Notes under the pieces: model-generated | Databases searched by the model: none | Told to the model about the DNA's origin: nothing | What the model saw: only the letters and a program-made list of their open reading frames with translations | Shown here: positions 1,974 to 31,682 of the stretch, piece by piece | Numbering within the stretch: the first letter of the stretch is position 1 | How the letters are laid out: each line of letters opens with the position of its first letter | Program-made: the position numbers and the translations under genes | Source: a virus | Lineage: Duplodnaviria; Caudoviricetes | IMG/VR virus record: IMGVR_UViG_642918906_000001 | Coordinates: 128,001-192,000 of that record | Reading direction: 5' to 3' (one strand) | Length of the DNA: 64,000 bases

Positions 1974-2049
1974 TTCCGGTGAAAAATAGATCTTTCACAT
2001 TTAGATACTTGTTTAAAACCAAAACCCATCCTGCGTAGGAAATTAATTA

Positions 2050-4290
2050 ATGAAACATCTTAAATCTCTGAAGTCTGTATTTAAAGCTACTACTGACGCC
2101 CATCAAACTTTCTCGATGGAAGGTTTTGTAAGCGCCATGAAGAAAGAAGACGATCTGGCAGACGGTCTGTTCCAATCGGCTGAACGCGCTGCTGGTCTGA
2201 TCGACTCGATCGGTACTGAATCTTTCGGTTCTAAGCATGATGATGCACAAACTGCATCCAGCCTGTACAAGCAAATCTCGAAGATTGCTCGTGACTATGG
2301 TTTTGAACAATACCTGTCGGCTGACGAACGTGTTGCCGAAAACCAACTGACCGCTGCTGTTCTGGGTTCCCTGGCTGCAACCAACACCAGCAAATACATC
2401 AAAGCTCTGCGCGGTGTATCGAAAATCGTTCCGTCGACCGAAGACATCAAAACCATCACCCAGACCTATAGTGGTCCTGCTGGCGGTATGGATGTATTCA
2501 CTGGCGAAGAAACCAAAGCTGTAGCTCTGGAAAACTACAACGAAAAATCGCAACGTGACTTCCGCGTTGTTACCGTTGGTTATAACCTGGCTGCTTCCCG
2601 TCAGGACGAGTTCGCTGAACGTATCTACCCAACCACCGTTATCAACCCTATCGAGGGTGGTGTGGTTCAGGTTCTGCCATACATCGCTGTAATGAAGGAC
2701 GTTCACCACTCCGTGAACGGTGCTCGTTGGAAGAACGACGAAGTGAACATGGTTGAAGCATACCGTGATCCGTCGATCCTCGACGACAACGCTACCGACC
2801 TGATCCCAGCTATCGATCCAGCCGGTACCAACCTGCATTACTTCGCTGACCCAGCTCTGATCCCAGCTGAGACTGTTGTTAACGAACAAAACCTGTCGAT
2901 CGAAACCGCTCCTCTGAAGCCTGGTATTCGTCTGGACCTGATGGGTAACTCCAACGCTAACCTGCTGATTGCAGCTAACATGCTGGACGTTTCCGACACC
3001 ATCGACCCTGCTGGTCGTCTGAAAGCTCTGTACATCAAGTTCCAGGATAAAGTGATCAAGTTCAAAGTAGACCGCATGCCACGCGCTGTGTTCCAACCAG
3101 ACCTGATCGGTGATACCCGTGGTGCCAAAGTTGACTTCTGGACCGACGACCTGACTGTAAGCTCCGTAACTCGTACTATCGACGGCGTACAAACCGCTGC
3201 CATGTCCGAACTGGAAGCTCGTGGCTGGGTACTGCGTCTGAGCGTAGACTTCACTGGTAACATCTCCACTTCGAAAGGTGATTCCCGCTTCACCAATGGC
3301 GACGCTACTATTGCCAAGATCCTGAACGCTGACCGTCGCGAAATCGACATCACCGCAGGCGATGGTAAAGTACTGGCTGATACCATTACCGATCTGGAAA
3401 TCGTTGGTTTCGAACTGCAAGTTCGCTTCACTAACACTAACCGTCGTCAGCGCGGTCACCTGCTGCAAACTCGTGCTCTGCAATTCCGTCACCCAATCCC
3501 AATGCACGCTCCAGTGACTCTGCCACTGAGCACCATGGAAGATGAAGGTCCAGGTGAAGTTGTTAAAGCTCTGACTGTTAACACCAACATCCGTAACAGC
3601 AACAACGCTGTTAAGACTCTGTTGAACTACCTGGCTCAACTGCGTGAGCTGACCGGTAACGGCTTCAACCGTCCAGTCATCAACGTGTACGAAGGTGCTC
3701 TGGCCGCTGTAATGCGTCCTACCTACCACTACGACACCATGCATCTGCCAGACATGATCGACACCCTGAAGTCGAAAGACCGTTGGGACGACGTCTGCTC
3801 GGCCATCCTGAACAAAGTTAAAGGTATCCTGTTCCCAGCATACCGTAACTCGAACATCGAAGCTGCCTTCCGAGTAATCTCGGGTAACCAAGACGAGCGT
3901 CCGATCTTCCTGTTCTGCACCGACAAAGAAATCGCCAACTACCTGATGACTAAAGGCGACGACCGCACCCTGGGTGCTTACCTGGAATACGACATCGTAT
4001 CCACTAACAACGAACTGTTCGACGGTAAGTTGGTAGTAGTACCTACTCGTAAGACTCCAGTTGAGAACGACATCCTGAGCTTCGGTCAGTTCTTCTACGT
4101 ATCGACCATCATCGCTGACCTGCCTATCACTCGTGGTGGTAATCAGATCACTCGCGAAATCGCAGCTGTTCCATTCAACCTGCACATCAACAACGTTCCA
4201 TTCGCTCTCGAATTCGACGTTACTGGTTTCGAACAGGTAATGGGCCACTCGATGTGGAACAAACCAGTTGTAGACGCCCTGGGCGCTTGA
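2050..4290 (+). CDS. Major capsid protein precursor (phiKZ gp120-like)
   Basis: 746 aa with extreme codon bias. AVALE|NYNEK processing site followed by YNLAASRQDEFAERIYPT, and TNTNRRQRG, typical of phiKZ-family capsid proteins. Confidence 0.95.
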   Translation: MKHLKSLKSVFKATTDAHQTFSMEGFVSAMKKEDDLADGLFQSAERAAGLIDSIGTESFGSKHDDAQTASSLYKQISKIARDYGFEQYLSADERVAENQLTAAVLGSLAATNTSKYIKALRGVSKIVPSTEDIKTITQTYSGPAGGMDVFTGEETKAVALENYNEKSQRDFRVVTVGYNLAASRQDEFAERIYPTTVINPIEGGVVQVLPYIAVMKDVHHSVNGARWKNDEVNMVEAYRDPSILDDNATDLIPAIDPAGTNLHYFADPALIPAETVVNEQNLSIETAPLKPGIRLDLMGNSNANLLIAANMLDVSDTIDPAGRLKALYIKFQDKVIKFKVDRMPRAVFQPDLIGDTRGAKVDFWTDDLTVSSVTRTIDGVQTAAMSELEARGWVLRLSVDFTGNISTSKGDSRFTNGDATIAKILNADRREIDITAGDGKVLADTITDLEIVGFELQVRFTNTNRRQRGHLLQTRALQFRHPIPMHAPVTLPLSTMEDEGPGEVVKALTVNTNIRNSNNAVKTLLNYLAQLRELTGNGFNRPVINVYEGALAAVMRPTYHYDTMHLPDMIDTLKSKDRWDDVCSAILNKVKGILFPAYRNSNIEAAFRVISGNQDERPIFLFCTDKEIANYLMTKGDDRTLGAYLEYDIVSTNNELFDGKLVVVPTRKTPVENDILSFGQFFYVSTIIADLPITRGGNQITREIAAVPFNLHINNVPFALEFDVTGFEQVMGHSMWNKPVVDALGA

Positions 4291-4377
4291 ACTGGAAAGG
4301 GTGGATTCCGTTACATGGAAGATGGTACTACTGTCAGATATGAAGAAAGCGGGATTGCCCGCCGACTAGAGCGGTGA
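4291..4377 (+). other. In-frame extension after the capsid UGA stop (putative readthrough peptide TGKGGFRYMEDGTTVRYEESGIARRLER)
   Basis: 28 sense codons in frame after TGA-A, ending at TGA 4375-4377 before the terminator. The peptide matches the C-terminus of the 31131-31682 product. Confidence 0.65.
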
Positions 4378-4391
4378 CACTAGATCATACG

Positions 4392-4420
4392 GCCAGTCCT
4401 TCGGGACTGGCTTTATGTTG
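4392..4420 (+). terminator. Hairpin GCCAGTCC-TTCG-GGACTGGC plus TTTATG flank
   Basis: 8-bp GC-rich stem with cUUCGg loop downstream of the capsid gene. Confidence 0.85.
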
Positions 4421-4440
4421 TCTTATGGGGTAATACAAAA

Positions 4441-4462
4441 TATTTGAGATTTATATCATTCA
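4441..4462 (+). promoter_or_regulatory. Candidate early promoter TATTTGAGATTTATATCATTCA
   Basis: 22-bp exact copy at 55889-55910. TATATCAT resembles the phiKZ early consensus TATATTAC, and both copies follow a terminator. Confidence 0.65.
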
Positions 4463-4501
4463 TTTGATCTTAATATTAATCCTTAACCAAAGGACCCGAT
4501 T

Positions 4502-5020
4502 ATGAGCTTCTTAGCGAACTATTGGAAAGCCGTTGAACGAGCTGTATCTGAGACGGGAATGAATCCAGGGGATATCGTAATCGACATCACCACTGTTAGT
4601 AAAAATACTGACGTGCCTGATGTTGTAGAGTCCTTTGTTAATGATGTAACACAACCCCAACCTGAGCCGGCGCAAGCTGGTAATATGCCCCAACCCAAAA
4701 CTGACTTTGAGGCTAGGGAATCCCTGGCTAGGAGGTCGGCTAGACCAAGCCAAGGAATCGAAGAACTGGAAGAAAACTACGATACCAAAGCTACCACCAA
4801 CAAAACCCGCGTCAAACGAGATGTACGAGTACGTATGGACGAAAGAGATTCCGGGATCACCGTCAGTCCTAATCCGACGAAAGAAGAAAGACGCAAAACG
4901 CGTAAGGCGGAAAACAAGCGTTTAAAGAAACTCGGTGGAGGTAGAAAAGTGAGGTTGATTATTGACGAGGTACGTTTGAATGACAGAACTATATGGTCGC
5001 CACCCGGCGTTGACCGATGA
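4502..5020 (+). CDS. Hypothetical protein with basic C-terminus
   Basis: 172 aa, AAGGA RBS, K/R-rich tail. Confidence 0.7.
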   Translation: MSFLANYWKAVERAVSETGMNPGDIVIDITTVSKNTDVPDVVESFVNDVTQPQPEPAQAGNMPQPKTDFEARESLARRSARPSQGIEELEENYDTKATTNKTRVKRDVRVRMDERDSGITVSPNPTKEERRKTRKAENKRLKKLGGGRKVRLIIDEVRLNDRTIWSPPGVDR

Positions 5021-31130: not shown

Positions 31131-31682
31131 ATGAGTGATCGTTTTCCCTACAACCTCCCATCGCGTGAGGCGCTTGTAGAACTGGTCCGCCGTTCTGAGA
31201 ATCGACCTGATCTGCGTGACAACTTTGTCACCTTTGAAGATCTGTTTTTCTCACCGACGCTAGTGGAACCCGGTAGAACTTATATTGAAATGGTCGACCT
31301 CATTACGAGTCATAAAGACTGGTTTGAGTTTCGACGTTTGGATCTTGCGGATAATCGGTGTCTTGGTCCAACGATTAATATTATCGTTCAAGGTAATGCC
31401 ACTCCAGCCAATATTGCGCTGGAAATCAACCGTTCACGTAAAATGTCTTTTGGTGAGAGCGACGTTTCGTTCTCCGACGAAGTGATCGCATATACAGGCG
31501 ATTCGTTTGATTACGATTTTACTGCTCTTTCTGGTAGCTACGCTTACTATGGTACAACCAAGGTTAAAGTTACAGTTGTCCCAACATCTCAATGGACACG
31601 CTACACCGAGAGTGATCTGATTCGTTATACTGAAGTTGGTGTTGAACGTGAACTCGAACACAAAGTAAGTAATTGGAGTTAA
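31131..31682 (+). CDS. Virion structural protein ('YxRxDL' family) with C-terminal RYxE repeat peptide
   Basis: GAGGA RBS; ALVELVR and FEFRRLDL motifs; ends RYTESDLIRYTEVGVERELE. Confidence 0.75.
   Translation: MSDRFPYNLPSREALVELVRRSENRPDLRDNFVTFEDLFFSPTLVEPGRTYIEMVDLITSHKDWFEFRRLDLADNRCLGPTINIIVQGNATPANIALEINRSRKMSFGESDVSFSDEVIAYTGDSFDYDFTALSGSYAYYGTTKVKVTVVPTSQWTRYTESDLIRYTEVGVERELEHKVSNWS

Follow-up and report, generated by a model that had tools for sequence, protein, structure and literature searches.

Where does the major capsid protein of a phiKZ-like jumbo phage end? This question arises from a stretch of 64,000 nucleotides (here called the window; positions 128,001 to 192,000 of IMG/VR record IMGVR_UViG_642918906_000001, a virus of the Caudoviricetes), in which the capsid gene, an orthologue of phiKZ gp120, closes with a TGA and the frame then stays open. 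The sequence TGKGGFRYMEDGTTVRYEESGIARRLER at 4291-4374 provides 28 sense codons in the capsid frame between this TGA and a second one. A preliminary description of the window had noted this layout, which we confirm, and had proposed that UGA readthrough gives a minority of extended capsid subunits. Our comparison with related phages supports that proposal through the conservation of both frame and peptide, and we consider it likely that selected UGA readthrough produces a minor, C-terminally extended capsid isoform. The source genome has 316,674 bp at 45.3% GC. Among the named members of the phage collection, Pseudomonas phage Viktualia comes closest, with 90.5% identity over the stretch.

Within the window, the 3′ end of the capsid gene has two features that had been described before and that we observe as well. 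The hairpin at 4391-4412, with a 9-bp stem, begins 13 bases past the second stop and is followed by TTATGTTGTC. As it is the sole terminator-like hairpin on the plus strand within 4150-4560, the terminator indeed comes only after the second stop. Both this hairpin and the GGCTTTATGYCGT stretch are conserved among relatives (alignment A1). The shift in codon usage at the first stop is also real: GGA, GGG, AGA, AGG, CGG, CTA, TTA, and TCA are not used once in the 746 capsid codons, and 6 of the 28 extension codons (GGA twice, GGG, AGA, CGG, and CTA) are of this kind. An open frame of such length is not by itself beyond chance on this genome alone, where at least 28 sense codons follow the stop in 25% of 364 open reading frames (ORFs; non-nested, at least 100 amino acids). 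The significance of the frame therefore derives only from the comparison with relatives.

For this comparison, capsid 3′ ends were gathered from named phages, IMG/VR contigs, and metagenome contigs, and duplicates were dropped. The tree set comprises 35 distinct sequences; it excludes L007 and L077, which closely resemble L003 (near-identical) and L016, respectively, L079, which breaks off ahead of its stop, and two short sequences, L081 and L082. In 22 of the 35, the capsid gene ends in TGA followed by a homologous in-frame peptide of 24 to 30 amino acids; 12 end in TAA without the peptide; and one, the IMG/VR contig L038, has TGA followed by a long in-frame ORF with a Big_2 domain and no motif. 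The peptide is present in at least eight lineages, among them phiKZ, PhiPA3, PS119XW, Phabio, Psa21, RVTF4, Noxifer, Viktualia, and uncultured contigs. Adding L007 to the 22 gives 23 motif-bearing junctions. In every one of these the capsid stop is TGA, and the second stop varies (TAA in 14, TGA in 6, and TAG in 3). Frame, length, and motif persist even at an overall capsid identity of only ~54%. Thus, the RYxE peptide, whose conservation in relatives the preliminary description had left to be checked, is retained in frame behind TGA in 23 of 23 junctions with turnover of synonymous codons. A stop-less fusion of capsid and extension, the other arrangement it had envisaged in relatives, occurs in none of the 35 distinct 3′ ends. 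A word-limited search of a set of 5.8 billion proteins, with 83 candidates scored, likewise returned no fused form among six proteins, all of which are 740 to 746 amino acids long and end at the normal stop.

The alignment of 22 peptides demonstrates protein-level selection on the extension in the capsid frame. Its motif columns are R, E, G, R (21/22), E (21/22), G, R, L (20/22), and E (21/22). The three arginine columns, two of them invariant, are encoded by CGT, CGA, CGC, CGG, AGG, and AGA; both invariant glycine columns employ all four GGN codons; and the leucine column employs CTA, TTA, CTG, and CTC. The ratio of nonsynonymous to synonymous substitution rates (dN/dS, NG86) has a median of 0.42 over the 175 of 231 usable pairs. 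All indels are whole codons, and frames +1 and +2 are each closed by stops in 20 of the 23 junctions. Separately, the penultimate motif codons (4363-4371 in the window, and their counterparts in relatives) are nearly always (C/T)TA followed by GAG or GAA. The rare leucine codon CTA or TTA, found in 17 of 22 sequences, brings with it an out-of-frame TAG shortly ahead of the stop of the extension.

The same stretch might instead be untranslated, its conservation being that of DNA or RNA. It could belong to the terminator and 3′ untranslated region, or it could be a copy of the 3′ end of a second gene, the orthologue of phiKZ gp143, with gene conversion keeping the two alike. We regard both variants as very unlikely. 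The stretch does lie in a 3′ untranslated region adjoining a conserved terminator, and the window RNA folds better than its shuffles (z = −2.84, terminator included). In addition, three of the five pairs of a 5-bp CCGUC/GACGG pairing are kept in 16 to 17 of 18 sequences. However, the variation clusters at synonymous positions of invariant residues, with first-position changes between CGN and AGR and between CTA and TTA among it, and indels come only as whole codons. The consensus structure predicted by RNAalifold is weak (−5.67 kcal/mol; covariation term, −0.28), which argues against a selenocysteine insertion sequence (SECIS) element and against an RNA-level explanation, and an Rfam search gave no match. 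The gene-conversion variant is taken up below with the gp143 data.

If the stretch is translated, its product could still be a separate small protein that is never fused to the capsid, with translation starting independently or through termination-reinitiation shortly past the capsid stop. In the window, ATG 4315 is preceded by the purine-rich GGAAAGGGTGGA; PhiPA3 and the contig L067 have ATG at the same place, and Phabio and Psa21 have TTG. The long ORF of L038 begins with an ATG only 6 nt past the TGA, so that coupling is conceivable there. On the other side, an in-frame ATG, GTG, or TTG is absent from 12 of the 23 peptides, and in none of the 23 does a start codon lie upstream of the first conserved arginine. 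A start codon at the position of ATG 4315 (codon 9) is found in only 5 of 23, and it falls past that arginine. Therefore, the free 20-residue peptide from ATG 4315, raised in the preliminary description as the contrary case, is unlikely. The ATG of the window is incidental, and the extension has no start codon of its own. Moreover, conservation begins right at the stop, with xGKG or xNPG and then an arginine at about codon 7, and a strict preference for TGA over TAA is not expected under reinitiation. A free, unfused peptide is thus quite improbable, and readthrough of the capsid stop is the expression route to which the comparison points.

The tie to TGA deserves particular attention. Across the compared 3′ ends, presence of the extension goes strictly with a TGA stop, and the neighbouring genes at the same loci have no such regularity, with stops of TAG 6, TAA 4, and TGA 2 upstream and TAA 6, TGA 2, and TAG 1 downstream. 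Across this genome, ORFs that end in TGA have orthologues with the same stop in only 11 of 34 cases in Phabio and 6 of 22 in phiKZ. In a genome-wide scan of post-stop peptides, that of the capsid ranked 4th of 137 in conservation against Phabio and 2nd of 93 against phiKZ, and those ranked above it all proved to be in-frame neighbouring genes with their own methionine start.

The exceptions follow the same rule. Two contigs without the peptide lie within the extension-bearing part of the tree: L068, nested in the Psa21-like clade, in which a deletion of ~59 nt has removed most of the extension, and L071, which is also nested. The capsid stop in both is TAA-T. Remnants can be read past the TAA, as "ASRLRLEP" in L016 and L077 and as "..CCTAGAGTAG" in L068. 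The placement of the large TAA group differs between methods, IQ-TREE setting it outside the extension clade (support 89/40) and FastTree making it sister to L015. These remnants recall another possibility, namely, that a once longer capsid gene suffered a nonsense mutation and left the extension behind as a decaying relic. This we hold to be exceedingly improbable, since frame, length, and motif persist across strongly diverged capsids, dN/dS is below 1, and the peptide has truly decayed, and quickly, where the stop is TAA.

In L038, whose capsid is ~52% identical to that of the window, the 203-codon ORF in frame past the capsid TGA (L038:2410-3021) carries a Pfam Big_2 Ig-like domain (E 4e-9). 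In its sisters L039 and L040, the capsid gene closes with TAA and the terminator follows at once; therefore, the Big_2 ORF and the TGA arrived together in L038. Either readthrough delivers a second kind of cargo at this site, or the ORF is a decoration gene whose translation is coupled to that of the capsid gene. Within the compared set, TGA is kept only where coding sequence follows in frame.

Other modes of recoding fare less well. UGA is also the selenocysteine codon, and some large phages carry suppressor transfer RNAs (tRNAs). For the capsid stop, however, decoding as selenocysteine or by a dedicated suppressor tRNA is hardly conceivable. In its 316,674 bp the genome encodes one tRNA, Leu-TAA; no suppressor tRNA with a UCA anticodon was found in it, and TGA terminates 104 of the 364 ORFs counted above. 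The genome does not have the make-up of one with a suppressor tRNA or an alternative code. Selenocysteine recoding requires a SECIS (PMC7026636), and we found no conserved stem-loop of that type directly 3′ of the UGA, in keeping with the lack of an Rfam match. Frameshifting finds no footing either, as the extension lies in frame 0, no slippery site was found, and the alternative frames are mostly closed as given above.

A second line of evidence comes from the virion protein encoded by ORF 31131-31682, the gp143 orthologue. The preliminary description had seen the motif of the extension recur at the C-terminus of this ORF, and a regular expression does find it in only two places of the window, namely, the capsid extension and this ORF. 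The link is in fact stronger in the relatives than in the window. All gp143 orthologues examined (in sets of 6, 4, and 13) end in the motif, which in phiKZ reads R-LLENG--RYLENG--RYLES. The window copy has the most degenerate repeats of all of them and an extra "KVSNWS" past the motif. We built a 23-position profile from gp143 tails and extensions and ran it on five whole genomes. At E < ~0.03, it found two places per genome, the gp143 C-terminus and the post-capsid peptide, with one partial match in Psa21 (E 0.008) as the exception. Extensions outside the model are still matched (PhiPA3, E 4e-10; Psa21, 3.6e-6; Phabio, 1.2e-4; Noxifer, 0.022), and the profile found no copy in phiKZ gp126 or gp127. 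The tail is represented by no family in Pfam, and against PDB sequences its profile gave chance matches only (E 2.4). A profile made from the extensions alone, when run on the genome of the window, matched only itself (E 2e-16) and missed the gp143 orthologue. This appeared to refute the link, and the apparent refutation was dismissed on the orthologue alignments, in which the window copy is simply the most degenerate.

Since every genome has this second copy of the motif, gene conversion between the two loci could conceivably maintain their likeness. Over nine genomes, however, the nucleotide identity between extension and gp143 tail is 0.513 within and 0.533 between genomes, and third-position identity is 0.311 within and 0.308 between, with amino-acid identity of ~0.55. 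Permutation found no sign of coevolution or gene conversion in the same genomes (p 0.84 for amino acids and 0.89 for nucleotides). The gp143 tail is present also in genomes whose capsid lacks the extension, and a co-loss test gave no co-occurrence signal for the two.

The AlphaFold2 (AF2) model of the window gp143 orthologue is usable, with a predicted local distance difference test (pLDDT) score of 81.4, and its top Foldseek match is the phiKZ baseplate protein gp127 (9xqd_0, E 4.9e-7). Published views of gp143 differ. One describes a cytoplasmic, holin-specific "lysis regulator" (PMC12894885). The other, a preprint on Goslar, lists gp143 among the DUF7941 proteins, proposed to sit at the peripheral baseplate, and suggests that these polymerise head-to-tail, with the next protomer serving as the docking site for the region past the N-terminal domain (bioRxiv 10.64898/2026.04.21.720040). 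Our fold search agrees with the fold of the latter baseplate-filament family.

For the position of the tail on the capsid, the phiKZ structure offers a guide. There, the C-terminal arm of the capsid protein (residues 728-747) forms a six-helix bundle around a ~9-Å pore at the hexon centre, and in pentons it reaches the external protein gp244 (PMC11297242). Because the arms form the hexon bundle and touch gp244, the tail probably emerges at the capsomer centre, on the outside. An AF2 model of the capsid protein with its extension is poor (mean pLDDT 44.9) and carries little weight here; in its tail, beta-bridges with a period of ~8 residues are predicted at a pLDDT of 62 to 68, and the gp143 tail has the same periodic pattern, in both cases at low to moderate confidence.

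These observations lead us to the following sequence of events. Capsid translation would normally terminate at the UGA, and in a small fraction of ribosomes a near-cognate tRNA of the host, probably tRNA-Trp, would decode it. Among stop codons UGA leaks most, and tRNA-Trp can read it as a near-cognate (PMC7026636). Continuation over the 28 codons to the second stop would give a capsid isoform of 775 residues, carrying a Gly-rich linker and a tail of ~22 residues with three repeats (RxLEDGxx RxLEDGxx RxLE). The tail may project from the capsomer centre as a small display or docking module common to capsid and gp143, as the same module ends this DUF7941 virion protein. We infer that readthrough is a minority event because codon usage collapses at the stop and the fused form was not found. 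The lack of a fused form and the non-optimal codons also suggest that full occupancy of the tail is not wanted.

Several points weigh against readthrough of this kind. The sequences share descent, and their counts overstate independence. No readthrough-stimulating element, neither C at +4 nor a 3′ structure, was found, the base after TGA being mostly A or G (A 15, G 7, C 1, and T 0 in the 23 junctions). Such a cis context is not obligatory for the leakiness of UGA in bacteria. The extension has been lost in at least two lineages and is therefore dispensable in some settings, and the AF2 model lends weak support to a folded capsid tail. Finally, a term search of the available text of the phiKZ capsid structure paper found neither readthrough nor extra density (PMC11297242). 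A flexible tail of low occupancy would be averaged out of the phiKZ capsid map.

A more specific function can be put forward, though we consider it rather doubtful. The readthrough tail could act as a docking peptide for the N-terminal domains of DUF7941 proteins, so that a few extended subunits per head tether gp143 or another DUF7941 filament protein to the capsid surface, or compete with the identical tail of gp143 for one site. If so, the amount of assembled capsid would be coupled to host-recognition fibres or, given the reported tuning of the holin by gp143, to the timing of lysis. In this way, a double-stranded DNA (dsDNA) jumbo phage would have turned a rare error of translation into a fixed means of setting stoichiometry.

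The existence of the isoform would have consequences in any case. phiKZ, PhiPA3, and their relatives, which serve as major phage-nucleus and therapy models, would possess an unannotated capsid isoform, missing from proteomic databases and from cryo-EM models of phiKZ-like phages. A short, portable C-terminal module common to the capsid and a DUF7941 "lysis regulator" would suggest an unrecognised interaction, and the junction would offer a clean natural system for UGA leakiness in Pseudomonas. The capsomer centre would be a capsid position that tolerates low-copy display of foreign modules, with an Ig-like domain there in one relative (L038). As for annotation, the conserved frame-0 peptide is unannotated in all deposited records whose annotation was examined. 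In Viktualia (L001:1872-1970) and HPP-Temi (L007:1845-1988), annotated small hypothetical ORFs overlap the capsid stop in a frame other than that of the peptide.

The features of the locus and of the gp143 orthologue are collected in Table 1.

Table 1. Features of the capsid 3′ end and of the gp143 orthologue, in window coordinates
Feature	Coordinates	Strand	Remarks
Major capsid protein gene, phiKZ gp120 orthologue	2050..4287	+	746 codons, strongly codon-biased; Pfam PF25620 PhiKZ_MCP, E 1.3e-226
TGA stop, proposed low-frequency readthrough site	4288..4290	+	+4 base A (GCT TGA A)
Gly-rich linker TGKGGF (relatives: xGKG or xNPG)	4291..4308	+	Alignment of 22 peptides
Three octad-like repeats, RYMEDGTTV / RYEESGIA / RRLE(R); consensus RxLEDGxxRxLEDGxxRxLE	4309..4374	+	Invariant columns with synonymous codons; profile matches gp143 tails
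Second stop, TGA here; true end of the proposed extended form	4375..4377	+	
Intrinsic terminator hairpin and T-rich tail, past the extension	4391..4422	+	
phiKZ gp143 orthologue, DUF7941-type virion protein	31131..31682	+	C-terminus with the same motif as the capsid extension
Tail motif of the gp143 orthologue, RYTESDLIRYTEVGVERELE	31599..31658	+	Degenerate copy; regex match

Two further observations concern the surroundings of the capsid gene. On the minus strand, an ORF of 733 codons (window 2047-4248) mirrors the capsid gene codon for codon. The lack of TTA, CTA, and TCA codons in the capsid gene keeps it open, and it is most likely a by-product of the extreme codon bias and not a gene. Past the terminator, at window ~4440-4460 (columns ~240-255 of alignment A1), an AT-rich block conserved across genera precedes the next gene; it reads ATCTATATTAC in most relatives and TTTATATCATT in the window, and it appears to resemble the phiKZ early-promoter consensus.

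Among known systems, the coat gene of the RNA phage Qbeta is the textbook case, in which UGA readthrough yields the minor isoform A1, reportedly described by Weiner and Weber in 1973 (cited in PMC7026636). As in Qbeta, the capsid gene here ends in UGA, the in-frame extension has no start of its own, no dedicated tRNA is needed, and an extended form is expected to make up a minority of the coat subunits in the virion. In contrast to the RNA coliphage, the present case concerns a dsDNA jumbo myophage of ~317 kb, and the predicted extension measures 24 to 30 amino acids instead of ~200. Minor C-extended structural proteins are also familiar from dsDNA phages, as T7 gp10B and frameshift-added Ig-like domains. 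There, too, recoding gives a minor C-extended form of a major structural protein, as we propose here, and the Big_2 Ig-like domain appended at the same position in L038 recalls the frameshift-added domains. However, T7 gp10B and its like rely on a change of frame at a slippery site, whereas the present extension continues in frame 0 right after the stop. The tail of gp143 and the DUF7941 proteins resembles the capsid extension in bearing RxLEDGxxRxLEDGxxRxLE at the extreme C-terminus, and differs in that it is ordinary ORF sequence, the capsid copy being placed behind a stop codon. The literature searched, as far as its text was available, contained no description of readthrough in a phiKZ-like capsid gene or in the capsid gene of any tailed dsDNA phage. 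Thus, recoding of the Qbeta A1 type is known, and its occurrence in the capsid gene of a dsDNA jumbo phage, if real, would be new.

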